A stretch of DNA of 64,000 bases, taken from NCBI GenBank assembly GCA_043825615.1, contig JBDRRS010000012.1, forward strand, positions 1 through 64,000, read 5' to 3'. The notes under the pieces were generated by a model, which was given only the letters and a program-made list of their open reading frames with translations, was not told the origin of the DNA and made no database searches. Positions 21,366 through 64,000 of this stretch are shown one piece after another. Position 1 is the first letter of the stretch. Every line of letters begins with the position of its first letter. Made by a program: the position numbers and the translations under genes. The DNA is from a bacterium. GTDB lineage: Bacteria > CG03.

Positions 21366-22193
21366 TTACTTTATGATTTTAAATCTTCTTCCGTTGCTTT
21401 TAACAACTACCGTTCCGCGATTTTCCGTTGAAAGCACTTTAATTCCGAGTTCTTCTAAAATTGAAAGCACTTTTTCTTCATCTTCGGGCTTTCTCCATTC
21501 GCTCTCACCGGTCGAGATAACAGCAATACTTGGATCGACGGTTTTAAAAAACACGCGGGACGGCTGCTTGCCGTGATGGGGCGCTTTCAAAACTTCGCTT
21601 TTAAGTTTGTCTCCGTATAATCCTGCCAACTCTTCGCATATTCGCGAACTGATATCTGCCGTGAAAAGAAATCTCACACCGCCGTGGGTCATCTTTAAAA
21701 CCAGGGCGGATTCGTTTAGATTGTTGCCGGGCTTCTCAGGATGCAGAACTTCTATTTTAAAATCCGGTTCATCAACCATTATATCGCCGCGTTTTAAAAT
21801 TACGCATTCAATGTTTTTTCCCGAAGACAGTTCCCTGAGTTCCGCCCATTCTTTTCTCCCCGTCATGCCTTCGTTTGTCAGAAGTTTCCCGACCTCAATG
21901 TTTTGGAGAACTTCCGGCAGACCTCCGATGTGGTCTGGATGCGGGTGCGTGGCGACAACAAGGTCCAATCTTTCAATTTCCTCCTCTTTCAGATAATTTA
22001 AGATTTTATCCGATTGTTCCGGATAACCCCCGTCTATAAGAAGATTCCCGCAAATTTCATTTTCTATCAAAATACAGACCCCGTAACCGACATCGATGAA
22101 ATGTACACCCAGTTTGTTTTTCTCCTTACAACCCAAACAAAATAAAGTCAGAACTAAAAGTATTATTATTTTTTTCTTAATCATTTTATCCAA
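21366..22193 (-). CDS. MBL-fold metallo-hydrolase (ComEC C-terminal-domain-like) lipoprotein
   Basis: HPHPDHIGG metal-binding motif, and a lipobox LFCLGC. Confidence 0.75.
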   Translation of the reverse strand: MDKMIKKKIIILLVLTLFCLGCKEKNKLGVHFIDVGYGVCILIENEICGNLLIDGGYPEQSDKILNYLKEEEIERLDLVVATHPHPDHIGGLPEVLQNIEVGKLLTNEGMTGRKEWAELRELSSGKNIECVILKRGDIMVDEPDFKIEVLHPEKPGNNLNESALVLKMTHGGVRFLFTADISSRICEELAGLYGDKLKSEVLKAPHHGKQPSRVFFKTVDPSIAVISTGESEWRKPEDEEKVLSILEELGIKVLSTENRGTVVVKSNGRRFKIIK

Positions 22194-22471
22194 TTCTGCA
22201 TTAAGTATTTTTCTTCAAATTCATCAATTATCGTTTCTTTGCTCCGTTCATTTATCCTAAAAGAACGCCCGTTTTCTCCCAACCGCTCAGCAACGTCCTT
22301 ATTTTTTTTCAATTTATAAATATTTTCCCTTAATTCTTCCGGTTTTTCCGGAAAAATTACTATCCCAAATTTATATTTTCTTGCAATGTGCGATATTTCA
22401 CAATTATCCGCAGCCGCTATAATCAACGGTTTGCCCGCAGAAGCCGGGCCGAATACTTTAGAAGGCATCAC
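22181..22471 (-). pseudogene. Remnant of a GT-B (family 1/4) glycosyltransferase C-terminal domain
   Basis: 96 aa resembling only the C-terminal E..G.P.I motif region (VFGPASAGKPLIIAA...) with no N-terminal domain. Confidence 0.4.
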
Positions 22472-22485
22472 TATGTCCCCTCCGC

Positions 22486-23661
22486 CTAATGAAATACGAC
22501 TACCTGTTTATACACCTCACAAGTTTTTGCAGCAATTTTATCCCAGTTATAATTTTCTTTTAGATTCTTTTTTTGGCTATTTTTTTCTTCTTCGCTGATG
22601 CCCAAATTAAATAAGTTAATCATCGTCTTCGACAAATCATTTACATTGCCAGTTTCAAAAAACCTAAAATCAGGCAAATGAACTTCTCTGTTCTGTGGTA
22701 TATCACTCGCAAGTACGGGCAAACCATAACTCAACGCCTCGAGCAAAGCAATCGGCAAACCTTCATAGTAGGACGGCAAAACAAAAAGTCCTGCATTAGA
22801 AAACAACTCCTGTAAGGGCTCTCCAGATATAAATCCAGTCAGAATAACCCCCGCTGTCTCTTTCGCCAATCTTTTGAGTTGCCTGCTATATTCTGTTTCA
22901 TGGTCAGCATCTCCGGCAATAACAAGTTTAAATTCCGAATTTTCAATCCTTCTGTATGCCTTAATTAAATCATGTAGCCCTTTCTCGGGAACAAACCTGG
23001 CGGCGGTAAAAACATATTTTCGCGGTTCAAGAGAAAATCGCTCCAATGCCTTCCCCTCCGAAACAATGTCAGGAAATGTAACACCATTCGGGATATAGCC
23101 TGATTTTTCGGCACTACATGTTTTTTTTTCCAGTCTTTGTTTTATCCCTCGTGAAATTGCTATTATCCTGTTGGCAAATGAGATACCCATATATTCACCT
23201 GCCCTTAAAACCAATTTAGCAGCAGACCCCCATTTTTTTCTCTCATAATCCGGCCCGTGATGTGTCATCACAACTTTTAATCCTAATAGTCTTGCCAACG
23301 GGACTAACAGCGACGGACCAATAGCATGAATATGCAGAATATCAGGTGATTTTCGCCAGGATACGATTACCCCCAGAAAAGTGTGGATAATCGCTTCAAA
23401 ACTTTTTTTTCTCGGACACCAGAGGTGAATAAATTTTATTCCCCTCCACTCCGTTAATCTTTCCTCCGCAGGAATATACGGCGTTCTTGTAAAAACCGTA
23501 ATATCGCAGCCCAGTTTCACCAGCCTCGGATAAAGTTCCTCACAATGTTTTTCCACCCCGCCCTGAACATGCGGAAAACCTCTTGTTCCAAGTACAATAA
23601 TTTTTATTTTATGCAAATTTTCTTTCCAAGTAATGATTTGATTTTGCTTTTCAAAACCCAT
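22486..23661 (-). CDS. Glycosyltransferase family 4 (GT-B)
   Basis: 391 aa with a C-terminal EGLPIALLEALSYGLPVLASD motif. Confidence 0.75.
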   Translation of the reverse strand: MGFEKQNQIITWKENLHKIKIIVLGTRGFPHVQGGVEKHCEELYPRLVKLGCDITVFTRTPYIPAEERLTEWRGIKFIHLWCPRKKSFEAIIHTFLGVIVSWRKSPDILHIHAIGPSLLVPLARLLGLKVVMTHHGPDYERKKWGSAAKLVLRAGEYMGISFANRIIAISRGIKQRLEKKTCSAEKSGYIPNGVTFPDIVSEGKALERFSLEPRKYVFTAARFVPEKGLHDLIKAYRRIENSEFKLVIAGDADHETEYSRQLKRLAKETAGVILTGFISGEPLQELFSNAGLFVLPSYYEGLPIALLEALSYGLPVLASDIPQNREVHLPDFRFFETGNVNDLSKTMINLFNLGISEEEKNSQKKNLKENYNWDKIAAKTCEVYKQVVVFH

Positions 23662-24593
23662 GCGGCCGGTTTAAAAATATTTTTTTTCATAGCCGGAGAA
23701 GCGGTTCCAATCATCCAGCAGTTTTTAGCGCATTTCCCAATATCCGATTTTATTTTCACAGCTTTTTCGCTGTTCCATATTTCATCAAAAGTGTTTTCAT
23801 TCAAATTACCCATGCTGTTTTCGGAGGAATCAGTATCCAGACCGTTGCATGGCCTTATTTCGCCGAAAGGATCAAGAAAAAACATATTCTTACCCGCTCC
23901 GCAGGGCAAAAGCCGGGTATTGCCTTTTATGTAATTTACCAGTCCGTAATTAAAATATGCGCGAAACCAATTCTTTATCCTGTTGGTTCTAAGAAGCTCA
24001 TTCACAATCTCTTCAAAACTGCTTATAACCTCTTTTTTGTTTTCAATGCTGTTATCATGCTTATGAAAATAATAGGAATTATGCACCGCCGCGGTGGCGA
24101 ACTCAACATTCATAGATTTTGCAAGCTGATAAAGTTCCAGCATATCCCTGTGATTTCGGTCAGATACGGTTATACCGAAACCTATGTCTTTCAAACCTAA
24201 GCGCTGTAATTCAAGCAAAGTTCTAATGCCGTGGTCAAAACCATCCTTTATTCCCCTGAGTTCGTCATTAGCCGCCGGAAGCCCCTCTATACTTATTCTC
24301 ACCCCGAGACGATTGTTTCCAAGTGTTTTCGCAAGCGTCACTATTTTTTCAGTAAAATAACCGTTTGTGCTGATTACCACTCTGTCTGCTTTTTTTAAAA
24401 GTATCTTTACAATATCTTCAATATCAACCCGCAGAAAGGGCTCACCTCCGGTCACATTCGCAAATTTCAAATGAGGCAGTTTTTCAAGTATCTCCGGCTT
24501 AAATTCCTCTTCTATCGTCGTAGGATACTGCCAGATATTGCACATCACACATTTGCAGTTGCACCTATACGTCGTTATTATTGCTGCTTCCAT
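23604..24593 (-). CDS. Radical SAM enzyme with a probable C-terminal SPASM/twitch Cys cluster
   Basis: CNCKCVMCNIW (CxxxCxxC) at the N-terminus, with additional Cys motifs near the C-terminus. Confidence 0.8.
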   Translation of the reverse strand: MEAAIITTYRCNCKCVMCNIWQYPTTIEEEFKPEILEKLPHLKFANVTGGEPFLRVDIEDIVKILLKKADRVVISTNGYFTEKIVTLAKTLGNNRLGVRISIEGLPAANDELRGIKDGFDHGIRTLLELQRLGLKDIGFGITVSDRNHRDMLELYQLAKSMNVEFATAAVHNSYYFHKHDNSIENKKEVISSFEEIVNELLRTNRIKNWFRAYFNYGLVNYIKGNTRLLPCGAGKNMFFLDPFGEIRPCNGLDTDSSENSMGNLNENTFDEIWNSEKAVKIKSDIGKCAKNCWMIGTASPAMKKNIFKPAAWVLKSKIKSLLGKKICIK

Positions 24594-25280
24594 TATTTTT
24601 TCTCTACCAAAGCAATTAAATTTCCTGTGATACCAAAAATTTTTTGTTTATACAATCTTACTTTAATTTTCTTTGGAAAAAGTGAAAGAAATCTCTTCCC
24701 TGTTAAAAGATTGAGATGATTTATATCAGCCCAGTACTCTCTTCCAAACTTCTTGTAAATCCAGAACTTCATTTTGGGGGGCAACCAATGAGCAAATGGG
24801 AGTAACGTATGAGGATCAACTGGAAAACAATAATTTGGGGTAGTAATAAATGCCTTCTTGCTTACTCTCAAAATTTCATGGATAAATCGCTTCTGTTCAT
24901 TCCCCCCCCCCTACATGTTCTACCACTGCATTTGAGAATACAATATCAAAACAATTATCGGGGAATGGGAGGTTTTTACCATCACCAAAAACTAATCTTA
25001 CCTTCGGGAAACGTCTATTAAAATTTTTAAACTTTTCAGATTCATCATTGGTCAAAGCCGTAATATTTTCTGGATAAGGATACCATAATTCTAAAAAATT
25101 AGTCGCTCTGCCCAAAAAAGGACTAACCCCCACATCAAGAAGTTTCTCTACCCGTCTTGGTTTCATAAGAGAAATAAACAAATCATATTTGTTTTTTCTT
25201 GATTTCAATATTATCTTTTCAGTTTTTTTCCAAAGCAATCCGTCAGGCCATTGCAAAAGTTTTTCTTTAATCTGTTTCAT
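24593..25280 (-). pseudogene. Class I SAM-dependent methyltransferase split into two ORFs (24897-25280 and 24593-24871) by a frameshift at a G10 homopolymer; a candidate phase-variable gene or a homopolymer sequencing error
   Basis: The N-terminal ORF ends ...VEHVGGGE* at the G10 run. Removing one G gives in-frame read-through (GGGNEQKRFIHEILRVSKKAFITTP...) into the downstream ORF. Confidence 0.6.
24902..24911. repeat. Homopolymer C10 (G10 on the coding strand) that causes the frameshift
   Basis: Read directly. Confidence 0.9.
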
Positions 25281-26235
25281 CGGTACTTAATTTACTGCCG
25301 TTTCCATAATTAGTGTTTCCTTTTTCTTTAGCCCCAAATAAAAGAAATGATTTTATTCTAATATCTTCTTTAGAGGCATTTCTAAATTTTTTAGACAGCC
25401 AAATTTTTGATTTCTTTACATACTTCTCTTTATAGACCCTGTTTGGTTGAATTTTTACATTCTTAAAACTTTCGTTTACGAGCATTTTGTGATATTCCGA
25501 AGGAAGTACTCTATTAGGAGAACCTTGAAACTTCAGCAAATTCCATAAAAAATCAGAATAACGGTAAAGGTTCAAAGGATCAATATCTCTTAAAATACCC
25601 GTATGCGTTCCTGTATCAACCTCACCAAATATAATTCCGTTTTTCCTCATTTTTCTATATATTTCTTTAATAACCCAACTAGGGTTATCAAGATGTTCCA
25701 TTACCGCTTGGCTTATAACTAAATCGTATCGCCCGCTCAGATGCATGTCAATGTTGTATTGCCTGTCCGAAATATACATGAAATTTCCCGAAAATTCCCC
25801 ATTACTGATTTTTTCAACCGCATTTTTAGCTCTCTCAAAAAAAGGATAATTCTTCAATTTTTCAAGTAATATCTTATAAAATAGAAGCGGCGTTTGCCTA
25901 ATAAGACGAAATTTGTCAAACGCAGTATAACTTCGAGCGCCGAAAGCAAGAAGTATTACCCCTGTGCCTAAATCGGGACCTGGGCCAAGTTCCAGTATAT
26001 CCTTGTTCTCAAAAACTAACTTGCTTTCACTATATTCCCTTAGATATCTTCTCCATTTTTCCACATAATCAAAAACATGTAGAACGCTTCTTTCTACCTG
26101 CTTGGAAGAAAAAGTTCTAGGGCTGGTATAGCCCATAAGGAAATGTCTATATTTGTTACCCCACCGCAACAAAAGCCCCAACAAAAAACAGAAACACTGA
26201 TTGGCGCGTGAAGGGCCTACCGTTTCTATTCTCAC
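25267..26235 (-). CDS. Class I SAM-dependent methyltransferase
   Basis: ILELGPGPDLGTG glycine-rich SAM-binding motif. Confidence 0.7.
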   Translation of the reverse strand: MRIETVGPSRANQCFCFLLGLLLRWGNKYRHFLMGYTSPRTFSSKQVERSVLHVFDYVEKWRRYLREYSESKLVFENKDILELGPGPDLGTGVILLAFGARSYTAFDKFRLIRQTPLLFYKILLEKLKNYPFFERAKNAVEKISNGEFSGNFMYISDRQYNIDMHLSGRYDLVISQAVMEHLDNPSWVIKEIYRKMRKNGIIFGEVDTGTHTGILRDIDPLNLYRYSDFLWNLLKFQGSPNRVLPSEYHKMLVNESFKNVKIQPNRVYKEKYVKKSKIWLSKKFRNASKEDIRIKSFLLFGAKEKGNTNYGNGSKLSTDETD

Positions 26236-27470
26236 TTTAAGTTACCTTTGTTTTTTTCTATTGCCAACTGATATAATCTCATCAATTCTTTATAATGTTT
26301 TTCGGCATTAAACTTTTCTTCAACAAATTTCCTCGCATTTTTACCCATCTGAACAATTTTCTCAGGAGATGATATCAAATCCATGATCTTTTCTCTTAAA
26401 TCTCCTGCATTCCCTGCCTCGAAAGTATAGCCGGTATCAGCATCTTTGACAAGCTCCGGTATTCCGCCAATCCTTGCTCCAATGACAGGTTTGCCTAAGG
26501 CAAACGCTTCCAAAACTGTTCTTGGATTATTTTCATACCATTCAGAAGGAATAACAACCGCAGACGAGTTTTTAATTTCATTATCTAAATCATTCCCTGT
26601 TTTATAACCTAAGAATCTAATGTTTTTAACTCCATGGTCTTCAATGTAATGTTTAAGCTTTTCCTTTATCTGGCCATCCCCGATAATTTTCAATTCAACA
26701 TCATCCAGTCCTTTCATTGCCTTTATCAAAGTAACTAAACCTTTTTCATGCGAAAGGCGGCCAAAATAACAAATTGATTTTCCGTTGTTTTCATACTTAG
26801 GGATAAATTCTCCCGGATATATACAATTCGGCAAATATTCAATTTTGTGCTTGAACCCCATTTCTTTGAGTTTCTCTTTCAAAAACATACTAGGCGAAAT
26901 AAAAATATCAATGTCATCGTAAATATGCAGAATTTTATGATGTAAATACATCTCCACAACATTTATAAAACTTTTCAAATAAGAATTTTTTGTACATTTT
27001 TTGACAAAGCACCAATAATATTTGCTGTTTTTGCACCTTTCACACGGTACCCCGTCAACTAACATAGAATAAGACGGACAAACAAGCTTATAATCATGCG
27101 AAGTCATCACAACAGGAATGTTGCGTTTTTTAAAAACATGCAGTATAGACGGCGATATCTGATGCGCAAAATTATGCAGATGGATTATGTCAAATGACTC
27201 ATGGGATAAAAGCCTCTTGATTTTGTTTTTTGCCTCTAAAGAATATAAAATCTTTAATACAAAACTTATGCTCGTTTTAAAACCGCTTGTTTTATAATCT
27301 ACTTTATCCACAAAAAAAACTTCATATTTAAACTCCAAATTTTTTTCATGCCGCATTCCCCAATATGCGACTTTATGCCCTTTTTCTTTAAGGAGTTTCC
27401 CAGTATTAAAAGTTACTATCGCATCCCCCCCTTTAGGGTATAAAAATTTATTTATCAGCAAAACTTTCAT
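26232..27470 (-). CDS. Glycosyltransferase family 4; contains a G7 tract at codons 13-15
   Basis: 412 aa with a C-terminal EWYENNPRTVLEAFALGKPVI motif. Confidence 0.8.
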   Translation of the reverse strand: MKVLLINKFLYPKGGDAIVTFNTGKLLKEKGHKVAYWGMRHEKNLEFKYEVFFVDKVDYKTSGFKTSISFVLKILYSLEAKNKIKRLLSHESFDIIHLHNFAHQISPSILHVFKKRNIPVVMTSHDYKLVCPSYSMLVDGVPCERCKNSKYYWCFVKKCTKNSYLKSFINVVEMYLHHKILHIYDDIDIFISPSMFLKEKLKEMGFKHKIEYLPNCIYPGEFIPKYENNGKSICYFGRLSHEKGLVTLIKAMKGLDDVELKIIGDGQIKEKLKHYIEDHGVKNIRFLGYKTGNDLDNEIKNSSAVVIPSEWYENNPRTVLEAFALGKPVIGARIGGIPELVKDADTGYTFEAGNAGDLREKIMDLISSPEKIVQMGKNARKFVEEKFNAEKHYKELMRLYQLAIEKNKGNLK

Positions 27471-28160
27471 TTACTTTTTAGCTATTACGACTATTGTTTC
27501 TGAAATGCCAGGCAAAAGCGGAAGAAATTTTATTCTGCTCAGCCCGCATTGTTTCAGCTCTTTGTCAATTTGATGATATGTAACAGGATGCCATTCTGCC
27601 CTCCTTTGTTTCCTTCTTATTAGATTTTTGATACAATTTTTATGATAATAAGCCAAAATAAGAACACTCCGTGATACCCTCTTTAACTCAAGAATTATTT
27701 TTTTTCTATTGTTTTCGGGGGTATGCCCAAATAAGCGTAATGAAACACAGGCATCAAAACTATTTTCAGGATATGTTAATTTTTCTGCATCTTTTTCTTC
27801 TACCACTATATTTTCCTCTAAATTGAGCGATTTTAGTTTTTCTCTTGTACACATAACCATTTCGTTCGAAAGATCTACCCCTACAACTTTATATCCCTTA
27901 CTAGCCAAATAAATGGATAATCTCCCTGTCCCGCAAGGAACATCAAGGAGCCTATTCGGCGGTTTTATATTTGCCAAATTTAGAGCCCTCCCTATTAATT
28001 TCAGCTCCATTTTATTAACAATTTTACCTTTAAAATTCGTAAACCGATCCTTATCATACGTTTGAACAACTCTCTTATTCTGGTACACCTTTCGCGCCCT
28101 ATACCCTCCGTTTCTTTGTTGAGAAACCGCATCCTTACTAAAATCATTCTTGTCCGCCAT
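27471..28160 (-). CDS. Class I SAM-dependent methyltransferase
   Basis: LLDVPCGTGRLSIYLA motif I. Confidence 0.75.
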   Translation of the reverse strand: MADKNDFSKDAVSQQRNGGYRARKVYQNKRVVQTYDKDRFTNFKGKIVNKMELKLIGRALNLANIKPPNRLLDVPCGTGRLSIYLASKGYKVVGVDLSNEMVMCTREKLKSLNLEENIVVEEKDAEKLTYPENSFDACVSLRLFGHTPENNRKKIILELKRVSRSVLILAYYHKNCIKNLIRRKQRRAEWHPVTYHQIDKELKQCGLSRIKFLPLLPGISETIVVIAKK

Positions 28161-29370
28161 ATAATGCCTCCCAATTCTTCAAATACTCTTCACATATTTT
28201 TTCAATATTAAATTCTTCAGCAACAAATTCCCTCGCTTTATTTGAAATTATATTTAGATTAAAACTTTTTACTTCTATACATTTTGATATGATATCCGAA
28301 TAATCATCTACAACAAAACCGGTTTCGCCGTCTTCTATTAATTCCCCCCCCCCCCTTACTCCTGTAGTCATGACAGGCGTCCCCATGCTCATCGCTTCAA
28401 TCCATGTCAATGGCGGCGCTACTGTTGATTCTTTTTTTCCAACAGGAGAAAAGAACACATCAGCCGATTCAAGAAGTTTATTAAATTCATCTACATTTGT
28501 AATAATTTGCACCTTTTGACACGCCTTTTTAATATATTTTGTTTTATAACTTTCAGGCTTGAAAGCAAAAATAAATTCTATATCATCGCATTTTTGTACC
28601 ACTTCTTTTGCACTATCAACTGCGCGGTAAAAATCATCTTCCTGTATCTGTTGAATTCGCCCTGACCATAAAAACAATTTATTTTTCACGGAGCATCCGT
28701 ACTTCATTTTGATTGCATTTTTTTCTTCGAACGAAAGCCTTTTTTTAGGCATTTTTACACCCCAATGTATAACTTCCATTGTTTTGGGGGATATTCCTAT
28801 ATCAAAAAGTATTTCTTTATATGCCTTCGTAAAAGGAAACAATCTATCCAATTTCTTAAAACTGAGCTTAAGATAATTGTCATAAAATTTTCCTCGGGGG
28901 TTATAACTCGCTGGCGAATAAGTCATTTTTATATGTGGATATTTTTTCTTTAAATGCGGCATCACTAATCCAAAATTATCCATAAAATGTATCACCCCTA
29001 TATTTGATTTCTTAATAATTTCTGAAATATACTTTTCATACCACACAATAGTCAAGAATCTTTCTATCATTTCCCGGGGTTGTTTATGTTCGTGGTGATA
29101 ATATATTTTATCATTTATGCGTCTATAAAATCTTTTCCTATATAAATGGAAAGGACGTTTTAAATTGTGTATCATTACTTCTTCTTTTCCTGTTTTTTGA
29201 ATATATATTGGGACATCTTGATCATTGATAGATATTACTTCCGCCTTAACTTTTTCTGTTTTGACAAGTAAATCAATCATTTGACAATAAAAATTCTTCT
29301 CACCTGCTGTTATATACGGAAAATAACCCACGCCTATAAACATAACATTCTTCTTGTTTTCTTTATTCAT
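28144..29370 (-). CDS. Glycosyltransferase (GT-B, family 1/4); contains an in-frame G12 homopolymer
   Basis: C-terminal WIEAMSMGTPVMTTGVRGGGELIEDGETGFVVDD; the GGGG is encoded by the G12 run. Confidence 0.75.
   Translation of the reverse strand: MNKENKKNVMFIGVGYFPYITAGEKNFYCQMIDLLVKTEKVKAEVISINDQDVPIYIQKTGKEEVMIHNLKRPFHLYRKRFYRRINDKIYYHHEHKQPREMIERFLTIVWYEKYISEIIKKSNIGVIHFMDNFGLVMPHLKKKYPHIKMTYSPASYNPRGKFYDNYLKLSFKKLDRLFPFTKAYKEILFDIGISPKTMEVIHWGVKMPKKRLSFEEKNAIKMKYGCSVKNKLFLWSGRIQQIQEDDFYRAVDSAKEVVQKCDDIEFIFAFKPESYKTKYIKKACQKVQIITNVDEFNKLLESADVFFSPVGKKESTVAPPLTWIEAMSMGTPVMTTGVRGGGELIEDGETGFVVDDYSDIISKCIEVKSFNLNIISNKAREFVAEEFNIEKICEEYLKNWEALYGGQE
28344..28355. repeat. Homopolymer C12 (G12 on the coding strand) inside the glycosyltransferase ORF
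   Basis: Read directly. Confidence 0.9.
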
Positions 29371-30284: not shown

Positions 30285-30285
30285 A

Positions 30286-31521: not shown

Positions 31522-31666
31522 ACAACAATCCAGCCTCCCTCGTAAAAATACCCATAAATAAACTCACTTTAAATAGACCCGAAATTTTCAAAATCGAAGC
31601 AAAAGACAAGCCATTAACACAGCAACTATAACATTTTGTGGGAATTAATATCAGCATACGTGCTTT

Positions 31667-32842: not shown

Positions 32843-32846
32843 TGAT

Positions 32847-51345: not shown

Positions 51346-51356
51346 AATTATTCTCC

Positions 51357-56383: not shown

Positions 56384-56401
56384 TTATTAAGTTTATATGC
56401 C

Positions 56402-57061
56402 CTACAATTTTATCTTATCGCTGTTTATTTTAAAAAGCGGGGTCCTCTGCGGAACATATACTCCTTTCTCAACAGTATCTTTCATAATAATCGCTCCGGC
56501 ACCAATTAATGTTTCAGCTGCAATTGTAATTGAATTACGCAAAGTCGCATTAACACCTATAAAACAATACTTACTGATATGAACATTTCCCGACACAACA
56601 ACATGCGATGTAATAAAGCAGTGGTCTTCAATAACCGAATCATGCCCTATATGGTTTCCGCTCCACAGTGTCACGTTATTTCCTATCTTCACAAAAGGCT
56701 GGATTGTGTTGTTTTCCAGAATAAAGCAGTTATCCCCCACAGGTTTGTCGCTTAGAAAAGTGCATTTGCTGCTGATGTATGATACCAACTGATAACCCTT
56801 TTCTTTCGCCATGCAAAACTTCTGCGCTCTAATTTTATTCATTTCGGCATAACTAAGAGCTATGAACATCTTATGGGTTGATGGAGAACATCTGTCTACA
56901 ATAGCTTCAAAATCAATAATCGGCAATCCCATAAAATTATCACCTGTCATATACTTGCTGTCAATGGTAAAACCAACCACTTCATGCTCGCTATCACAAG
57001 AAAAATAATGGTGCGCCAGTTTTGCAATATCGCCTGTTCCAAAAATAATTAGTTTAGCCAT
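56402..57061 (-). CDS. PglD/NeuD-family sugar N-/O-acetyltransferase (left-handed beta-helix)
   Basis: N-terminal Rossmann-like IIFGTGDIAK plus C-terminal hexapeptide repeats. Confidence 0.75.
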   Translation of the reverse strand: MAKLIIFGTGDIAKLAHHYFSCDSEHEVVGFTIDSKYMTGDNFMGLPIIDFEAIVDRCSPSTHKMFIALSYAEMNKIRAQKFCMAKEKGYQLVSYISSKCTFLSDKPVGDNCFILENNTIQPFVKIGNNVTLWSGNHIGHDSVIEDHCFITSHVVVSGNVHISKYCFIGVNATLRNSITIAAETLIGAGAIIMKDTVEKGVYVPQRTPLFKINSDKIKL

Positions 57062-57705
57062 TATTCCTCTTTTCTCACCAGTATAGTGAACTCATATAAT
57101 GGATAATCATGTAATACGGCAATCAATCTTGAGAAGTTTTTTTTGCAATAGTCAAATAAAAAAAGTGGATCTGCATAAAAAAGATTATGCCTCATAAATT
57201 CGGGGTCAGAATACTTTGTCAACATATTGAAAGCAAAGCCTTTCTTGCTTATTTCCGCTAATTTTCCGAGAGTGCGAAGCACATAATCTTTCCATGCGTC
57301 ATCGCTCGTTCGCATCTTGACATTAAATATACCGCTGGCAACCGTATAATCTGTAATACTAATGTCCTTTTCATCGGAAGTAAAAGCACAATTTTTTAAA
57401 CTGCCGTATTTTGCTCGAGCCGCATCAATCATGTGTACTGATATATCAAATCCATTATATTCAAATTGGTACCCTTTTTCCGCTAAATACCCTGCCAGTG
57501 CGCCATAACCGCAACCATAGTCAGTTAATGTAAAATACTGACTCGTGTTAAAGATCTTGAGGAGTTGTTCGAATCTTAATTCCTGAGACTGCGCCGAATT
57601 CCAATCTACACCTTTTGGGAATGGGCCATAAACATCAAGTTTTTTATCATAATATTGTTTTGTTTGAAATAAAATATCGTCAAATATCATTTTTTTACCT
57701 TTCAT
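57061..57705 (-). CDS. Class I SAM-dependent methyltransferase
   Basis: TDYGCGYGALAGYLA motif I. Confidence 0.65.
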   Translation of the reverse strand: MKGKKMIFDDILFQTKQYYDKKLDVYGPFPKGVDWNSAQSQELRFEQLLKIFNTSQYFTLTDYGCGYGALAGYLAEKGYQFEYNGFDISVHMIDAARAKYGSLKNCAFTSDEKDISITDYTVASGIFNVKMRTSDDAWKDYVLRTLGKLAEISKKGFAFNMLTKYSDPEFMRHNLFYADPLFLFDYCKKNFSRLIAVLHDYPLYEFTILVRKEE

Positions 57706-58615
57706 AAATTTTTCTTATTATAGTGTACGGCCTGTCTTTGGTTTCCATAAAAACCCTTGAGAGATAAATGCCTATTAAGCCCACGCAAAAAATCGTTAAT
57801 CCTCCAAAAAACCATATAGTCACAATCAGGGACGGCCAACCTGCAAGAAGCACGCCGAAAAACGCCCTCTTTATTACAAGGTATAATGCGGTTATACTGG
57901 ATACAAGAAGAATTACACAGCCAAGGTAGAAGATAAATAACAAAGGTTTGTTACTGAACGACGTAATGGAATTTACCAATAAGGAAAATTTTTTTCCTAT
58001 ATCATAGCTGGTTGTTTTCTTATCCCTCTTCTCAACCATTAGAGGAACCTGCTTAAATCCGGTAATAGCCCAGAGACCTGCCATAAAAACCTCGCGGTCC
58101 TTATGTTTCACCAGATTGTTGACATATCTTTTGCTCATCAAGCGGGATGTTACCAGATTTGCAGGAATAGGGTAAGTTGAAAGAATATTAATCAACCAGT
58201 AAAAAATATTTCCTGACAACTTCTCAAAAAATCTCCCCTTGCGTGACTTTTGCACACCATAAACAACATCTATATCGTCATTTTTTATGTATTCTGCATA
58301 AAAACTTTCCACAAGCTCTGGATCTTCCTCTAAATCACAATCTATAAGAAAAACGATATCTCCCTGAGCGTGCATAAGGCCTGTCATCATTGCTTTGTGA
58401 TGGCCAAAATTTCTTGAAAAATCAATAATTTTGACCTTTGGGTCTTTTTCGTATAAGTATACGGCAATATTAAGCGAGTTATCCGGAGAGCCGTCGTTTA
58501 CAAAAATTATTTCGTAATTATTGGTAATTTTTCTTGCGGAAATGCTTATTTTCTTATAGAACTCTTTTAAATCTGGTTCCGAATAGTAAAGAGTAGTAAT
58601 TATTGATAATCTCAT
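57695..58615 (-). CDS. GT2 polyprenyl-phosphate glycosyltransferase (ArnC/GtrB/DPM1-like) with two C-terminal TM helices
   Basis: IITTLYYSE ... VNDGSPD ... DCDLEEDP motifs, plus C-terminal TMs. Confidence 0.8.
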   Translation of the reverse strand: MRLSIITTLYYSEPDLKEFYKKISISARKITNNYEIIFVNDGSPDNSLNIAVYLYEKDPKVKIIDFSRNFGHHKAMMTGLMHAQGDIVFLIDCDLEEDPELVESFYAEYIKNDDIDVVYGVQKSRKGRFFEKLSGNIFYWLINILSTYPIPANLVTSRLMSKRYVNNLVKHKDREVFMAGLWAITGFKQVPLMVEKRDKKTTSYDIGKKFSLLVNSITSFSNKPLLFIFYLGCVILLVSSITALYLVIKRAFFGVLLAGWPSLIVTIWFFGGLTIFCVGLIGIYLSRVFMETKDRPYTIIRKIYER

Positions 58616-58616
58616 C

Positions 58617-59318
58617 TTAATTCTTAAAACTCCTCATAAACTTTGCAGCATTAGGACCCTCATTAAAAATTAAATCAATAATACTTACATTATGTTCAAA
58701 CGGTGGATATAATTGATTATATTCTTGGTAGTCTGAATAATCAAACCAGGTTAATTTAATTTTTTCCTGCTTAAAAAGTTCTTCCTCAATATAATCTTTT
58801 GCTGCTGTACCGGAAATATATTCTGTTGCTCCCACTTTTTTACAAATATGTAATAACGCCTTAGTTTTGCATTCTGTTTTTTCGTAATCATTTAACCAAG
58901 ATATTTGAGTAGCAATATTAAGTATTTTGTTGATAACTTTGATAAACTTATAATTGATTTGACTTAGATATTTTTCGTTACTGCTCAAATATAAATCCTC
59001 GAACAACTTTTTATAATCTTTAAAATATTTTGCTTTTGAATAATTTTGCAATATCTTATTCCAGTGTCTTTTGCCCCAATCTTTCTGAGCAATTTTTGTT
59101 TCATTGATTTTTTGAAAGTATTTACCTTTTACTTCCACAGGTATCGTAAGCCATCTTAAACCTTCCGGGGTTTTTATTTTATTTCTATTTCTCCAATCTC
59201 TTTGTGTATATTGCACATTATCATATAAAATAAATTCATTCACCCTATTTATAATATCAAAATATCCCTTCCACGGGATATAATTTGATTGTATAATTGC
59301 TATTTTTTTGTCTTTCAT
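58617..59318 (-). CDS. WbqC-family protein
   Basis: N-terminal IIQSNYIPWKGYFD signature. Confidence 0.7.
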   Translation of the reverse strand: MKDKKIAIIQSNYIPWKGYFDIINRVNEFILYDNVQYTQRDWRNRNKIKTPEGLRWLTIPVEVKGKYFQKINETKIAQKDWGKRHWNKILQNYSKAKYFKDYKKLFEDLYLSSNEKYLSQINYKFIKVINKILNIATQISWLNDYEKTECKTKALLHICKKVGATEYISGTAAKDYIEEELFKQEKIKLTWFDYSDYQEYNQLYPPFEHNVSIIDLIFNEGPNAAKFMRSFKN

Positions 59319-59356
59319 TCTAAAATTAATATCCTTTATATTTTATATTTGAATAA

Positions 59357-60214
59357 TTACTTTCTGATCTTTAATATCGGCCTTAACCCGTCTTTAGTAT
59401 CAGCCCTCCATTCTCTTTCAGCTAACTCAATTCCAGCGGGTTCTTTTAAACCCGTACCGTCAGCAGTAAAACTTTCTCTTATGTCTTTTATAACCGCGCC
59501 GATTTTATGAGGCAGCCAGCAGTGCCCCGATTTAAATTCCTCGCCTTCTCCGTCCAGATCCAGATGAAACTCTACAATCCGCGCCTGCCATCTGCACACG
59601 GCTCGCCATATAACATTTTCTTTAACCGTATGATCGGACCAGCCGACGGGACAATTAAATTTATCGGCGAGTGTCTTTATCGCCGCTAAATTACAGTCTT
59701 TGACCGGAACAGGGTAAGACGAAACACAATGAAGAAGAGACATGTCTTCACAGCCCGAATCCCGCAAGACCCGCACCGCTTTTTCAACCTCTTTTAACGT
59801 GGCCATGCCCGTTGATAGAATAATCGGTTTCCCCGTTTTCGCGCATTTCTTCAGCAAATCATCCCACAGCAATTCGTAAGATGCTATTTTATAAAAATCT
59901 ACATACGGCAATAATTCATCCACAGCATCCAGATAGAAAGGAGTGCATGAAAACTCTATACCTTCGTTTTTACATGCCTGGGCTAATTCGGGCAGAAAAG
60001 CGACGGGAAGCTCCCATTGCTTTCTTTTCTGAATTTCTTTGTTTTTTTTGACAATTTCCGGCGCGAAAAGTTTATCTATTTTGAATAATTGAAATTTTAC
60101 CGCATCGCAGCCTATTTCCGCCGCTGTTTTAATAAACCTTAAGCATCTTTTCAAATCCCGATTATGATTGCTTGAAACTTCGGCTATAAATTTTACAGAA
60201 TTTTTATTTCGCAT
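59357..60214 (-). CDS. NeuB/PseI-family nonulosonic acid synthase, short form without the C-terminal SAF domain
   Basis: VKFIAEVSSNHNRDL...DAVKFQLF TIM-barrel motif; 285 aa. Confidence 0.75.
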   Translation of the reverse strand: MRNKNSVKFIAEVSSNHNRDLKRCLRFIKTAAEIGCDAVKFQLFKIDKLFAPEIVKKNKEIQKRKQWELPVAFLPELAQACKNEGIEFSCTPFYLDAVDELLPYVDFYKIASYELLWDDLLKKCAKTGKPIILSTGMATLKEVEKAVRVLRDSGCEDMSLLHCVSSYPVPVKDCNLAAIKTLADKFNCPVGWSDHTVKENVIWRAVCRWQARIVEFHLDLDGEGEEFKSGHCWLPHKIGAVIKDIRESFTADGTGLKEPAGIELAEREWRADTKDGLRPILKIRK

Positions 60215-61373
60215 TTTTCAGAACAATCCTCCTGAAAACTTTTATCACATAATTCTGCGATTTCTTATCCAGTGATGGAAAAATGGGCAGACTGATACAT
60301 TCTCCGTAATATTTTTCTGCGTTTTTTAGGAAAACATTTTTACAAATATACTTTTTATAATACGGTTGTTGGTGTATCGGGATGTAATGCACTTGTGGGA
60401 ATATTCCGGCTTTATTTAAATTTGCGAATAGTTCTTTTCTGTTAATTTTCAGTTTTTCAAATTTTACGCGCAGCACATACAAATGCCATGAATGTTTTTT
60501 ATCCTTCTTGGTATATTCGGGCAATCCGACAAATTTACTAATCTCTCTAAATGCTTCATTATATCTTCCGGCAATTTGCCGCCGCCGGGCTACGAATTTA
60601 TCTATTTTTTCAAGCTGGCTGATTCCCAAAGCGCATTGAAAATCCGTAATCCGGTAATTAAAACCCAAATCCCTCATTTCATAATACCACTGACCTTTTT
60701 TTGCCGTGGAACTGTCTTTGTAAATTCCGTGGGTTTTTAACGCTTTTAATTTTCTATAAAGTTTTTGACTGTTTGTGGTAATAGCTCCGCCCTCACCCGT
60801 CGTGATATGCTTAACCGGATGAAAACTGAAAACCGTCATATCGGAATATCTGCAATTTCCAACTTTTTCCCATTGTCCGTTGATTTTATACTCGGCACCC
60901 AAAGCATGACAGGCATCCTCAATAATCATAATCTTATTTTTTTCAGCTATAAAGAATATTTCCTTCATGTCACAAGGGCACCCCGCGAAATGGACAGGAA
61001 CAATCGCTTTTGTTTTATTTACGATTTTGCTTTTTATCTTTTCGGGAGAAATGTTTGCGCTATCATAATCAATATCGGCAAATATCGGTTTCGCTCCCAC
61101 ATATAAAGCGGCATTCGCCGTTGACAGAAAAGTAATCGGCGTCGTTATAATCTCATCACCTTTTCCAAAGCCCGCCGCGAGATAAGCCAAATGAAGCGCC
61201 GCTGTGCCTGATGAAACGGCAACCGCATATTTCGCGCCGCAGAATTTCGCAAGTTTTGTCTCAAATCCCTCAATTTTAGGACCTTGCGTAAGCCAGTCAG
61301 AGCTCAAAACCGCCATTACCGCCTTTATGTCCTCTTTGTCTATGTGCTGTTTTCCGTAAGGAATTTTATTCAT
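60204..61373 (-). CDS. DegT-family aminotransferase, PseC-like; the start is taken at the Met at 61373 (MNKIPYGKQ), which overlaps the pseB stop by ATGA
   Basis: IPYGKQHI...TTPITF motifs typical of PseC/ArnB-like enzymes. Confidence 0.8.
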   Translation of the reverse strand: MNKIPYGKQHIDKEDIKAVMAVLSSDWLTQGPKIEGFETKLAKFCGAKYAVAVSSGTAALHLAYLAAGFGKGDEIITTPITFLSTANAALYVGAKPIFADIDYDSANISPEKIKSKIVNKTKAIVPVHFAGCPCDMKEIFFIAEKNKIMIIEDACHALGAEYKINGQWEKVGNCRYSDMTVFSFHPVKHITTGEGGAITTNSQKLYRKLKALKTHGIYKDSSTAKKGQWYYEMRDLGFNYRITDFQCALGISQLEKIDKFVARRRQIAGRYNEAFREISKFVGLPEYTKKDKKHSWHLYVLRVKFEKLKINRKELFANLNKAGIFPQVHYIPIHQQPYYKKYICKNVFLKNAEKYYGECISLPIFPSLDKKSQNYVIKVFRRIVLKNAK

Positions 61374-62356
61374 CAATATTTTTCTTTCTTTGCCATGGCT
61401 TTTAAATCGTTTACCGTCAGCCATTTCGTATTGTTATCGCTTCTGTAACCTTTAAACCCAATTCCTAAATATTTGCCTTCTTTCGCCTTCTTTTTCAACC
61501 GTTTCACAACCCGCGCATATATCGCATATTTATCTTTAAATTCATAACTGAATGGTCCATCGTCCTCACTTAGAAGCGTTTCATTCAGTTTCTCACCGGG
61601 ACGAATTCCTATTATATCCTGCCGGCAGTCAGGACAGATGGCTTTAGCGAGGTCCGTTACTTTCATGCTAGGAATTTTGGGGATAAAAATCTCTCCGCCT
61701 ACCATATCTTTCAGACATGATAACACAAAATTAACACCCTGTTCCAAAGTTATCCAGAATCGTGTCATTCGCTCATCAGTAATAGGCACTACCCTTTTCT
61801 TTCTGCATTCCTTAAAAAACGGCACGACACTGCCCCTCGAACCAAAAACATTGCCATACCTGACAACACTGAACTTTGTTCCCCGCGGTGAATAATTATT
61901 CGCCGCAACAAACATTTTCTCTGCGCAAAGCTTTGTCGCTCCGTAAAGATTAATAGGATTCGCCGCCTTATCTGTACTGAGAGCAATAACTTTTTTGACA
62001 CCGTTGTCTATCGCAACATTTATAACATTTTCCGCACCCATTATATTTGTCTTTACCGCCTCAAACGGATTGTACTCCGCCGTCGGCACAATTTTCAAAG
62101 CCGCAGCATGAATAACAATATCAACGCCGTTAAATGCCCGATGCAGCCTGTCGGCATCTCTGACATTCCCTACAAAATACCTTAAATTCCTGTATTTAGC
62201 ATCACTAAATTCCTTTCTCATTTCATATTGCTTCATTTCATCCCTGCTGAATATTATCAATTTCTTTGGTTTATATTTCCTAAGAACTATTTCTGTAAAT
62301 TTCTTACCGAATGAACCTGTTCCCCCTGTTATCAAAATGACTTTACCATTTAACAC
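61373..62356 (-). CDS. pseB: UDP-N-acetylglucosamine 4,6-dehydratase (inverting), PseB/FlaA1/CapD family
   Basis: MLNGKVILITGGTGSFGKKF...YGATKLCAEK, the YxxxK short-chain dehydratase. Confidence 0.85.
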   Translation of the reverse strand: MLNGKVILITGGTGSFGKKFTEIVLRKYKPKKLIIFSRDEMKQYEMRKEFSDAKYRNLRYFVGNVRDADRLHRAFNGVDIVIHAAALKIVPTAEYNPFEAVKTNIMGAENVINVAIDNGVKKVIALSTDKAANPINLYGATKLCAEKMFVAANNYSPRGTKFSVVRYGNVFGSRGSVVPFFKECRKKRVVPITDERMTRFWITLEQGVNFVLSCLKDMVGGEIFIPKIPSMKVTDLAKAICPDCRQDIIGIRPGEKLNETLLSEDDGPFSYEFKDKYAIYARVVKRLKKKAKEGKYLGIGFKGYRSDNNTKWLTVNDLKAMAKKEKY

Positions 62357-62583: not shown

Positions 62584-62586
62584 TTT

Positions 62587-63663
62587 TTATTTCTTCGGGA
62601 CTTCCAACTCCCGCACATAGTTTTCATAGTACATTTTCAGGCCGGTTTCAATATTTATGCGGCTCTGCCAGCCGAGATTTTTCAGTTGTGATACATCCAA
62701 AAGTTTGCGCGGAGTGCCGTCGAGTTTCGAGAGGTCTTTTTTTATTTTCCCTTTGAAACCGACCACGTTTTTTATTATTTCGGCATATTCGGCTATTGTT
62801 TTATCCCGCCCGCAGCCGATGTTTACGAATTCACCGATTTCCTTACAGCCGTATTTTCCCATAAGAAAAACACACGCATCGGCGAGGTCGTCGGAATATA
62901 GAAACTCTCTGTAAGGTTTCCCTGTTCCCCAAATCGTAACATAATCTTTCGTTATGCCTGTTTCCCCTAATATCCCATCAATGGAGTTTCTGTCGGTTAT
63001 GTCTATTCGCTCGTCGCGGCCGCTTCCGAGCGGATACTTTTTTATATCAGCCGCTATCGCGTCGTAATTCTCATCTGAAAGCATTTTTGCAAGATGAAAT
63101 TTTCTTATCAGCATGGGGAGTACATGCGCTGTTTCCAGATTGAAGTTATCATTTGGACCGTAAAGATTTGTCGGCATCACGGAAATATAATCCGTACCAT
63201 ACTGCTCATTATAATGTCTGCACAACTTAATCGCGGCTATTTTTGCTACGGCATACGGCTCGTTTGTGGGTTCCAGCAAACCTGTCAATAAATACTCTTC
63301 TTTCAAGGGCTGGGGAGCAAGTTTCGGATATATGCACGATGAACCGAGATTTAAAAGTTTTTTAACGCCGTATTTATACGCCGAATTTATCACATTCGCG
63401 GCAATCATTATGTTTTCATAAATGAACTGCGCCGTATATGTGCTGTTGGCGAGGATTCCGCCGACTTTTGCGGCGGCAAGAAAAACATATTCCGGTTTTT
63501 CTCTTTCAAAAAAACTCTCCACTTCCGCCTGTCTGGTAAGGTCCAATTCTTCAAAATTACGGTGAACAAGATTGATATACCCCTTGCCTTTTAAATTCCT
63601 TACGAGCGCGGTGCCCACAAGCCCCGTATGGCCTGCTATATAAATTTTTGAGTTCTTATTCAC
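62587..63663 (-). CDS. fcl: GDP-L-fucose synthase (GDP-4-keto-6-deoxymannose 3,5-epimerase/4-reductase)
   Basis: IYIAGHTGLVG ... YAVAKIA core motifs. Confidence 0.85.
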   Translation of the reverse strand: MNKNSKIYIAGHTGLVGTALVRNLKGKGYINLVHRNFEELDLTRQAEVESFFEREKPEYVFLAAAKVGGILANSTYTAQFIYENIMIAANVINSAYKYGVKKLLNLGSSCIYPKLAPQPLKEEYLLTGLLEPTNEPYAVAKIAAIKLCRHYNEQYGTDYISVMPTNLYGPNDNFNLETAHVLPMLIRKFHLAKMLSDENYDAIAADIKKYPLGSGRDERIDITDRNSIDGILGETGITKDYVTIWGTGKPYREFLYSDDLADACVFLMGKYGCKEIGEFVNIGCGRDKTIAEYAEIIKNVVGFKGKIKKDLSKLDGTPRKLLDVSQLKNLGWQSRINIETGLKMYYENYVRELEVPKK

Positions 63664-63681
63664 AATTTACCTTTCATCTTT

Positions 63682-64000
63682 TCATTCCTCGCTTCGGGAA
63701 TTGAAAGAAACCCGGTGCTCCGTATAGCCGAAGCCCTTCTCCTTTGAAACTTTAATGCCTGCGCCGGCAGGCACGAGGCCTGTTGTTTTCATATCATAAT
63801 CAATCATGATTTTAACAAGTTCCCCAAAAGAAACCCGAGGCTGCCAGCCGAGAACCTTTTTCGCCTTCGTTATATCCGCTTTAAGATTGTCAACCTCCGT
63901 CGGGCGAAAATATTTAGGGTCGATTTCAATTATGACGTCTCCCGTTTTTAAAGTTTCCTCTCGGCCTTTTTCCAAACTTTTTATAATGCCCCGTTCTTTT
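63682..64000 (-). CDS. gmd: GDP-mannose 4,6-dehydratase, C-terminal part; the gene continues past the window end
   Basis: C-terminal ...[28 protein letters not shown]... matches the Gmd C-terminus. Confidence 0.8.

Follow-up and report, generated by a model that had tools for sequence, protein, structure and literature searches.

Pseudaminic acid (Pse) is made in Campylobacter and Helicobacter by the canonical pathway PseB-PseC-PseH-PseG-PseI-PseF. Derivatives of Pse or legionaminic acid (Leg) are also encoded in Wzx/Wzy-type O-antigen and capsule loci, for example the K loci of Acinetobacter baumannii and the O-antigen loci of Pseudomonas aeruginosa. The sole studied relative of the nonulosonic acid (NulO) gene cassette considered here is the sfm cluster of Shewanella, for which there are genetics and mass spectrometry without a solved sugar structure; the cassette enzymes are uncharacterized. 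SfmA of Shewanella oneidensis is a 290-aa NeuB-domain protein (PMC3765264). Together with SfmB (a thiamine pyrophosphate (TPP) enzyme), SfmC (a short-chain dehydrogenase/reductase, SDR) and SfmD (a methyltransferase) it is required for normal motility and flagellin O-glycosylation, both of which are merely reduced upon loss of SfmE (ATP-grasp) (PMC3765264). The glycan consists of a 274-Da NulO with an attached 236-Da unit that may be methylated once or twice (PMC3765264), and according to the authors clear PseH, PseG, PseI and PseF orthologues are missing from S. oneidensis (Bubendorfer et al. 2013, PMC3765264). Here we describe a glycan-biosynthesis locus at 22.2-64.0 kb of a 64,000-nucleotide stretch (hereafter the window; contig JBDRRS010000012.1, assembly GCA_043825615.1) from the metagenome-assembled genome (MAG) of an uncultured bacterium, in which a cassette of the Sfm type is joined to genes for Wzx/Wzy-type assembly.

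The locus is a ~42-kb AT-rich sugar-biosynthesis island of foreign composition. We observe family and fold assignments for its proteins, a cassette conserved in other genomes, a block of genes set into that cassette, a shift in composition and a break in synteny. From these we read the locus as a hypervariable, horizontally assembled surface-glycan island of four modules, the product of which is most likely an O-antigen-, capsule- or exopolysaccharide-like polymer (probability roughly 0.6). Wzx and Wzy_C genes are present, and Pfam scans of the window proteins found no MptE-like/Maf or flagellar family; therefore a surface glycan is the most likely product, assembled by Wzx/Wzy and containing fucose, an acylated NulO and an amino-deoxyhexose. 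A preliminary description of this DNA had pointed to a heavily decorated NulO-containing glycan, and a glycan with a decorated NulO and fucose is very probably what is made.

To compare composition, GC content per gene, overall and at third codon positions (GC3), was calculated for 18 housekeeping genes (3-20 kb) and 37 locus genes and analyzed by the Mann-Whitney test, with a sliding GC profile besides. The housekeeping genes have a mean GC of 0.476 and GC3 of 0.541 and the locus genes 0.360 and 0.338, and the GC3 values of the two sets do not overlap (U = 666 = 18 x 37, p = 2e-9). Patches of higher GC occur in the locus at 42-43.5 kb, 49-51 kb and 59-64 kb. At the high end of the per-gene values are the SDR (0.445), the aldo-keto reductase and class-III aminotransferase (0.44), fcl (0.43) and the short NeuB (0.42), and at the low end WbqC (0.27), a 613-aa open reading frame (ORF; 0.286) and a 723-aa ORF (0.30). 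Windowed and per-gene GC thus agree with the AT-rich core noted earlier relative to the housekeeping, 49-51 kb and 59-64 kb regions, and add the patch at 42-43.5 kb.

The mosaic or horizontal origin proposed at the same time is also supported, by uneven per-gene GC, by best matches that lie across phyla and by a synteny break at ~20 kb. The best match of PseB is 76% identical, in an Omnitrophota MAG; a Nitrospirae MAG supplies the best matches of the FSA-type aldolase (70%) and SDR (77%); and the class-III aminotransferase has its best match (63%) in a Geobacteraceae MAG. A relative with 86% identical GlgA keeps the gene order GpsA to inositol phosphatase, and synteny with it breaks at ~20 kb, which supports a variable, acquired region. 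A GT4 glycosyltransferase remnant at the 3' edge of the island (22181-22471, minus strand as are all locus genes given below; 96 aa, C-terminal, Pfam Glycos_transf_1 profile positions 114-171 of 172, E 1.5e-5) suggests past recombination there. All family-supported ORFs of at least 100 aa at 22.2-64.0 kb are on the minus strand, and the 38 genes of this interval are separated by -58 to +303 bp, so that the tight, overlapping spacing first described holds. Their shared direction also holds but is not specific to the locus: nearly every long ORF of the entire window is on the minus strand, the sole supported plus-strand gene being ndk (14870-15370).

The window proteins were assigned to families by Pfam and NCBIfam scans, with scores given below in bits and equivalog cutoffs as quoted. 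PseB (inverting UDP-GlcNAc 4,6-dehydratase, 61373-62356; TIGR03589, 491 vs 408) and the aminotransferase PseC (60204-61424; TIGR03588, 517 vs 423) are equivalog-level matches, and the first two canonical Pse steps are present. The gene that follows encodes a short NeuB-family ulosonic-acid synthase of the SfmA type (59357-60214, 285 aa; Pfam NeuB, 220 bits) that is below the cutoffs of both the PseI (TIGR03586, 184 vs 340) and NeuB (192 vs 400) models. It aligns to positions 3-269 of the 327-position TIGR03586 and has no SAF/AFP-like C-terminal domain, the place of which is taken across the short-NeuB family by an invariant tail, GHCWLP ... REWRADP.DGLRP. Its SDH and E.H metal motifs align with the PseI structure 8h2c and the family has ~90 invariant columns; the protein looks like an active synthase. 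The PseG-like protein (48128-49102), encoded 7 kb farther down the locus, aligns over nearly its full length to TIGR03590 with 114 bits vs a cutoff of 154. The CMP-sugar (acylneuraminate-type) cytidylyltransferase (53512-54315; Pfam CTP_transf_3, 97 bits) has no PseF match in NCBIfam and just weak KdsB-type matches, which cover the N-terminal 117 residues. Pfam scans of all locus proteins detected no GNAT domain, the domain of PseH, and the sole acetyltransferase of the locus is of the NeuD/VioB hexapeptide type. Because PseH is missing, the synthase is SAF-less and below cutoff, the PseG-like protein is below cutoff and the cytidylyltransferase has no PseF match, the pathway, judged by these profiles, is not canonical PseBCHGIF.

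The preliminary description had listed as the NulO core PseB, two DegT aminotransferases, a NeuB-family synthase, a PseG-like hydrolase, a CMP-sugar cytidylyltransferase, a NeuD-type acetyltransferase and WbqC. PseB and one of the DegT proteins, PseC, are confirmed at equivalog level. The synthase, hydrolase and cytidylyltransferase belong to the families named, but diverge from the PseI, PseG and PseF models as described. The second DegT protein is instead a transaminase for dTDP-4-amino-4,6-dideoxyhexose, and the acetyltransferase and WbqC are correctly named as families but belong to a block of genes that is foreign to this type of NulO locus (see below).

We surveyed the short NeuB in one genome per GTDB species. 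The protein has thousands of ~285-aa homologues, more than 571 species have a relative, and the best 80 loci, with synthases 59-67% identical to that of the window over 97-100% of its length, were kept. They span many phyla, among them Desulfuromonadota, Acidobacteriota, Verrucomicrobiota, Chloroflexota, Firmicutes, Gammaproteobacteria (including Shewanella) and Methanothrix. Co-occurrence was determined by tblastn of every window protein against 82 short-NeuB loci, with counts taken from the 58 loci of at least 15 kb. Among these, the cytidylyltransferase is present in 50, PseC in 46 and PseB in 44, and the ATP-grasp genes (44734-45981, 43526-44737 and, with a LAL_C2 domain, 40844-42061 in the window) in 40-42. 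The FabG-like SDR (42049-42780) is found in 34 of the 58, the PseG-like protein and a 300-aa methyltransferase (47213-48115) in 28 each, a 649-aa GH57-like protein (38889-40838) in 26, the class-III (GSA-like) aminotransferase (50035-51345) in 16 and the aldo-keto reductase (49107-50030) in 15.

Gene order is shared as well. PseC is directly upstream of the short NeuB in 35/58 loci, and the usual order is PseB, PseC, short NeuB, cytidylyltransferase, aminotransferase, reductase, PseG-like protein and methyltransferase, then SDR, ATP-grasp and GH57-like genes. This order recurs in loci of Acidobacteriota, Burkholderiaceae, Geobacteraceae, Chloroflexota, Nitrospirota and Methanothrix, and the window follows it save for 5 kb between synthase and cytidylyltransferase. 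Methanocalculus also has the cassette, including three ATP-grasp genes. The cassette is thus conserved in many phyla and in archaea. It had been proposed that the locus carries far more tailoring functions than typical O-antigen or capsule loci. The 58-locus counts do not bear this out: the tailoring genes recur in the cassette elsewhere, and therefore the methylation, amidation and redox genes are mostly standard cassette content.

Clustering of the other ORFs in the 82 loci revealed frequent companions that are not in the window: a split transketolase (~20 loci), an acetolactate-synthase-like TPP enzyme (15), FlgK, FlgL and flagellin (each in 5-8), Maf (4 loci in one cluster and 6 in another), an FkbM methyltransferase (7) and a Wzc-like protein (6 loci; among those listed, three are Acidobacteriaceae). 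In Geobacter grbiciae the cassette adjoins flaG, flbD and motAB, with a Maf (MptE-like) protein at its end. Given the flagellar/Maf and the Wzc-like companions, the cassette serves flagellin glycosylation as well as polysaccharide loci. In Shewanella profunda, genes for ATP-grasp (38% identity), GH57-like (37%) and cytidylyltransferase proteins continue the cluster. The cassette has a variable slot for a carbon-carbon bond-forming or sugar-acid enzyme. The window has no TPP-dependent SfmB or split transketolase; the slot is filled by an FSA-type aldolase (42792-43466) beside the SDR, an arrangement that among the compared loci is common to just a Nitrospirae MAG locus (L075). The methyltransferase at 46038-47216, which is fused to a second, weakly CTP_transf_3-like domain as the preliminary description had noted, was considered as an SfmD orthologue and rejected, its similarity being that of methyltransferases in general.

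The 5-kb interruption of the cassette is a block of six genes (54312-59318). In gene order these encode WbqC (58617-59318; Pfam, 261 bits), an ArnC/PgfS-like GT2 (57695-58615), a 214-aa Pfam-supported methyltransferase (57061-57705), the NeuD/VioB-type acyltransferase (56402-57061; NeuD/PglB/VioB model, 174 vs 161), a GH130-like beta-propeller (55475-56383) and the WecE/VioA-type transaminase that is the second DegT protein (54312-55475; 575 vs 375). The short NeuB and cytidylyltransferase genes are directly adjacent in 46 of the 68 loci holding both and 5.0 kb apart in the window. By tblastn the six block genes have orthologues in 0/82 short-NeuB loci, and the same is true of the 723-aa protein, the 613-aa protein, fcl, Wzx and Wzy; the sole matches were cross-hits of PseC to the WecE-type transaminase (~30%) and single ones of 23-27% to the GT2 (27%) and Wzx. 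Because synthase and cytidylyltransferase are usually adjacent elsewhere and the intervening genes are absent from the 82 loci, the block is an insertion into the cassette. On the basis of the WecE-type and NeuD/VioB-type assignments it would be a separate pathway, to an N-acylated 4-amino-4,6-dideoxyhexose. A metagenome scan with the WecE-type transaminase retrieved just three short loci. For WbqC, a literature search found no functional study, and there is no relative in the PDB. The GT2 aligns over its full length to PgfS (170 bits vs 500, E 1e-49, its best NCBIfam match) and ArnC (121 vs 529) and has C-terminal transmembrane (TM) helices, the ArnC/GtrB architecture.

Directly after the cytidylyltransferase lies a gene for a 723-aa protein (51357-53528) with ~13 predicted TM helices and a soluble C-terminal globular domain. 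Sequence and profile searches against the PDB and Pfam returned nothing significant, the C-terminal domains of oligosaccharyltransferases appearing in the profile search against the PDB just at E 0.28-1.1, and a tblastn scan of genome contigs found no relative. When 1.84 billion representatives were searched in full with HMMER, 155 relatives emerged, of at most 33% identity (47% in one short stretch), most of them of like length. An AlphaFold model using 33 relatives reached a predicted local distance difference test (pLDDT) score of 83.8 and a predicted template-modeling (pTM) score of 0.88. The top 22 Foldseek matches of this model are GT-C enzymes exclusively (STT3, DPY19, PglB, AglB, AftA, ArnT), and its C-terminal globular domain superposes on the AglB-S2 counterpart. 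Since two structure searches on a confident model agree, the protein is a GT-C membrane glycosyltransferase of an unannotated family. D181, E191, P197, G206, Y212, H213 and R638 are conserved in the family. D181 and E191, nearly invariant and in a loop between TM helices, are candidate catalytic acids. No WWDxG-type motif was seen when the C-terminal domain sequence was read by eye.

Enzymes of the GT-C fold use lipid-phosphate-linked donors outside the cytoplasm. With an ArnC/PgfS-like GT2 encoded 4 kb upstream, it is therefore plausible that transfer proceeds in two steps, as in the ArnC/ArnT, GtrB/GtrC or Pgf systems. The closest relative of the 723-aa protein (L088, 749-4705) directly follows NeuC-like epimerase and cytidylyltransferase genes and is not beside a GT2. 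Another (L089, 4980-10055) follows radical SAM (S-adenosylmethionine)/SPASM and Wzy_C genes, both of which are also in the window, and a further one adjoins a GT2-methyltransferase fusion. The family seems to be tied to NulO-type or Wzy-type glycan loci.

At the far end of the locus are the predicted genes for GDP-L-fucose. The gmd gene runs off the window end, leaving the C-terminal 105 aa (63686-63999; Pfam GDP_Man_Dehyd profile positions 280-332 of 332, E 1e-13). An independent assembly (L002) adds 5 kb beyond this end, with a full-length gmd of 382 aa, an HTH_24 gene before gmd and then the contig end. The fcl-like GDP-L-fucose synthase (62587-63663, 358 aa; Pfam Epimerase, E 5.5e-61) reaches 446 bits against a cutoff of 500 for NF047922, so that the fcl and partial gmd first reported are retained, fcl with a match just below cutoff in two stretches. 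These stretches of the 308-position profile are separated by ~40-50 aa inserted near residues 199-239.

The assembly genes named in the preliminary description are supported: AsnB (32847-34703; TIGR01536, 523 vs 267), a Wzx-type flippase of ~12 TM helices (37385-38878; Pfam Polysacc_synt, 44 vs 28) and a Wzy/ligase-like protein (30286-31521; Pfam Wzy_C, 46.6 vs 31.7), and Pfam likewise supports the radical SAM/SPASM enzyme (23604-24593) and the three ATP-grasp ligases. The count of glycosyltransferases, given as at least seven, becomes six with Pfam support, four GT4 (31667-32842, 28144-29370, 26232-27470 and 22486-23661) and two GT2 (29367-30284 and the GT2 of the inserted block), to which are added the GT4 remnant, the GT-C protein and one orphan candidate. 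At least eight SAM methyltransferases had been claimed and seven genes are supported by Pfam. Three of them have been located above; the others are at 34691-35482, 27471-28160, 25267-26235 and 24593-25280, the last interrupted by a +1 frameshift that leaves ORFs of 127 aa (N-terminal, 24897-25280) and 92 aa (C-terminal, 24593-24871), the result of either pseudogene formation or an assembly error. The FSA-type aldolase, SDR, aldo-keto reductase, class-III aminotransferase, GH57-like and GH130-like beta-propeller proteins had not been named previously, nor had the 723-aa membrane protein and the 613-aa ORFan.

The 613-aa ORF (35544-37385) is intact, has a GC content of 28.6% and is mid-operon beside Wzx. 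Among 5.8 billion proteins its product matches itself alone, and it has no Pfam or PDB match; permissive Pfam settings gave just a weak DUF6716 match (E 0.31), and a single-sequence AlphaFold2 model was unusable (pLDDT 37). The protein has HP at residue 481 and SSS at 519. This spacing of 38 residues is reminiscent of the CMP-binding motifs of GT-B sialyltransferases, and offers no more than a lead. The protein may be a glycosyltransferase, and as a candidate NulO transferase it is a guess.

The four modules suggest the following scheme, for which we infer all substrates, the order of acylation, the acceptor and the feeding of all modules into one glycan. In module A, gmd and fcl would supply GDP-L-fucose. 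In module B, PseB and PseC, to go by their family scores, would produce UDP-4-amino-4,6-dideoxy-L-AltNAc, the free amino group of which may be acylated by the ATP-grasp ligases in place of PseH. The acyl group could be a carboxylate or an amino-acid-like unit formed by the FSA-type aldolase, aldo-keto reductase, class-III aminotransferase and SDR. The PseG-like protein would then remove UDP, the short NeuB condense the sugar with phosphoenolpyruvate (PEP) and the cytidylyltransferase form the CMP-sugar, with methyl groups presumably added by SAM methyltransferases. Module C, comprising the WecE-type transaminase, NeuD-type acyltransferase, WbqC and a methyltransferase, would make the N-acylated 4-amino-4,6-dideoxyhexose, which the ArnC/PgfS-like GT2 may load onto undecaprenyl phosphate; the GT-C enzyme would then act outside the cytoplasmic membrane, transferring a lipid-linked sugar. 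In module D, an undecaprenyl-diphosphate-linked repeat unit would be built and flipped by Wzx/Wzy_C, five cytoplasmic GT4/GT2 enzymes, AsnB, methyltransferases and the radical SAM enzyme.

Several observations weigh against a surface polymer assembled in this way. No initiating phosphoglycosyltransferase, Wzz/Wzc or Wza was found among the window proteins, these possibly being encoded elsewhere in the genome, nor was RmlA/RmlB, and therefore the assembly route and the supply of dTDP-sugar are incomplete in the window. The Wzy_C domain occurs in polymerases, in WaaL ligases and in O-oligosaccharyltransferases of the PglL/PilO type, and cannot tell which of these the protein is. The sole suggestion for the CMP-NulO transferase is the 613-aa ORFan, the ATP-grasp, aldolase, reductase, aminotransferase and GH57-like proteins are given their roles from context alone, and the setting of the closest GT-C relative makes the pairing of GT-C and ArnC-like GT2 uncertain. 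The locus also includes a frameshifted methyltransferase gene and a GT4 remnant. A scan of the island 3' edge for promoters and terminators found promoter-like counts at chance and 9 terminator-like sites against 4.8 expected (~1.6 standard deviations above chance), so that no boundary can be drawn and expression as a single operon gains no support from these chance-level counts. We also weighed protein glycosylation, in which an undecaprenyl-linked, NulO-ended oligosaccharide is flipped by Wzx and moved en bloc to a type IV pilin or S-layer protein by the GT-C enzyme or a PglL/PilO-like Wzy_C protein. In its favour, the GT2 matches PgfS better than any other NCBIfam model (E 1e-49), and PgfS belongs to the streptococcal Pgf system of protein O-glycosylation, where it is paired with PgfM1 and PgfM2 (PMC5856776). 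The NulO cassette elsewhere usually serves flagellin glycosylation, the window has two PilT genes of type IV pili, and its single Wzy_C protein is not accompanied by a chain-length regulator. However, five cytoplasmic glycosyltransferases with Wzx and Wzy_C are what a locus for a repeat-unit polymer usually contains, the locus has no gene for an acceptor protein, and the GT-C C-terminal domain shows no WWDxG-type motif to the eye. We regard this alternative as unlikely.

A somewhat better case, still a tentative one, can be made for several independent glycan pathways that are merely juxtaposed, with products on different molecules. The NulO cassette might serve one target and the ArnC-like/GT-C pair another, such as lipid A or a different glycan, with the Wzx/Wzy block making a separate polymer. 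The modular build with per-gene GC from 0.27 to 0.445, the best matches of the modules in different phyla, an inserted block unrelated to the cassette and the varied glycan contexts of the GT-C relatives all fit this arrangement, which partly overlaps with that of a single island for one polymer. On the other hand, over the 41 kb the genes overlap or are separated by 303 bp at most, the block lies within the NulO cassette while the cassette reading frames are intact, and there is one flippase and one Wzy_C protein. Far less probable is the canonical pathway to Pse5Ac7Ac that the preliminary description implied, with the NeuD/PglD-type protein as N-acetyltransferase and the second DegT and WbqC in the core. 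PseB and PseC are above equivalog cutoffs, and a hexapeptide acetyltransferase and PseG-like, NeuB-family and cytidylyltransferase proteins are all present, but there is no GNAT PseH, the synthase, PseG-like protein and cytidylyltransferase fall below or miss the PseI, PseG and PseF models, the acetyltransferase, WbqC and second DegT occur with this NeuB type in 0/82 loci, and the second DegT is a WecE-type enzyme of dTDP-sugars. A reading of the locus as a dead island was rejected, given just one frameshift and one remnant against ~38 long intact ORFs in DNA of 29-40% GC. We retain the horizontally assembled surface-glycan island. A bolder extension of it, which we consider improbable, would have the cassette make a chemically undefined class of CMP-ulosonic acids, in which a 5,7-diamino sugar is linked through an ATP-grasp-made amide to a methylated sugar-acid or amino-acid unit from a swappable carbon-carbon enzyme, in this locus the FSA-type aldolase, and at the same time have the 723-aa protein found a new GT-C family, with its AglB-like domain, attaching NulO glycans to protein or lipid outside the membrane.

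The flank at 2-21 kb is of housekeeping type and encodes GpsA, a band-7 protein, two PilT proteins, GlgA, a HIT protein, PilZ proteins, Ndk and an inositol-phosphatase family protein. At 8346-10659 and 14048-14848 are two PilT-family ATPase genes in tandem and two small genes with a PilZ domain, which show that the organism has type IV pilus machinery. The best named GlgA relatives are from Elusimicrobiota (55% identity), which weakly suggests a lineage near that phylum. Where synteny breaks, the window (20322-22193) has a DUF2204 nucleotidyltransferase gene that overlaps an 87-aa ORF, the two resembling a toxin-antitoxin pair, and a gene for a lipoprotein-like protein of the metallo-beta-lactamase fold; in the relative with 86% identical GlgA (L086, 1-3558) the same site is taken by PanD, small ORFs and a restriction-modification system of the HinfI type. 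At the opposite end of the window, positions 1-200 are a 98% identical inverted copy of 1703-1903, which comprises the 3' part of tRNA-Pro(CGG) and ~150 nt downstream, and Rfam calls a second, 5'-truncated tRNA at 1-47 on the plus strand. The inverted tRNA-Pro copies flank a large serine recombinase gene (~150-1570, minus strand), an arrangement that suggests an integrated or invertible element with tRNA-Pro sequences at both ends. Two 82-nt direct repeats (1957-2038 and 2284-2365, 95% identical) resemble the 5' half of tRNA-Pro at their start and diverge from it further on; neither ARAGORN nor Rfam calls them tRNAs, and the 327-nt interval between them holds a small GIY-YIG-like ORF by eye. 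An Rfam scan of the window returned tRNAs alone.

The wider interest of the locus lies in a widespread (>571 GTDB species genomes) but biochemically uncharacterized cassette that is joined here to ordinary polysaccharide-assembly genes. The cassette is not tied to flagella and can be plugged into a Wzx/Wzy-type locus, and its variable slot can hold an aldolase in place of a thiamine-dependent enzyme, which narrows the hypotheses on the extra moiety. Two unannotated proteins, a GT-C family with an oligosaccharyltransferase-like domain and the 613-aa orphan, are flagged for glycan research. Unusual CMP-ulosonic acids have now been detected in environmental bacteria, with genes not assigned (preprint 10.64898/2026.04.20.719630), and a gene-level definition of the cassette is therefore useful and the locus a useful lead.

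Compared with the canonical Pse pathway, the window shares PseB and PseC and the same logic of UDP-sugar hydrolysis, PEP condensation and CMP activation, but it is without PseH, a SAF domain and a PseF match and has a PseG-like protein below cutoff. With the ArnC/ArnT, GtrB/GtrC and PgfS/PgfM1/PgfM2 systems it has in common a GT2 with C-terminal TM helices that aligns in full to PgfS and ArnC. In contrast to those systems, this GT2 is far below equivalog cutoffs, there is no GtrA-type flippase, and the GT-C protein belongs to an unannotated family with an AglB-like C-terminal domain. That protein resembles STT3, AglB and PglB in its GT-C TM core and in the domain that superposes on AglB-S2, and differs from them in having no significant sequence similarity and no WWDxG-type motif seen by eye.

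Like the A. baumannii K and P. aeruginosa O-antigen loci, the window locus is low in GC, co-directional and hypervariable and combines NulO and nucleotide-sugar genes with glycosyltransferases, Wzx and Wzy; it differs in lacking an initiating transferase and export genes, and in its Sfm-type cassette with ATP-grasp genes, GT-C enzyme, radical SAM enzyme and seven methyltransferase genes. With Shewanella sfmABCDE it shares the short NeuB of ~290 aa, PseB/PseC without clear counterparts of PseH, PseG, PseI or PseF, SDR, SAM methyltransferase and ATP-grasp genes and, as in S. profunda, the GH57-like and cytidylyltransferase genes. Unlike sfm, it has no Maf or flagellar genes and no SfmB, an aldolase occupies the variable slot, the fused methyltransferase is not orthologous to SfmD, and the cassette lies inside a Wzx/Wzy_C locus and is split by the six-gene insertion. 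Low-GC, mosaic, co-directional glycan islands with NulO pathways are a well-known kind of locus, and as a genomic object this one is ordinary. Less ordinary are the Sfm-type cassette in a non-flagellar Wzx/Wzy context, the aldolase in its slot, the six-gene insertion, the unannotated GT-C family and the large orphan ORF.

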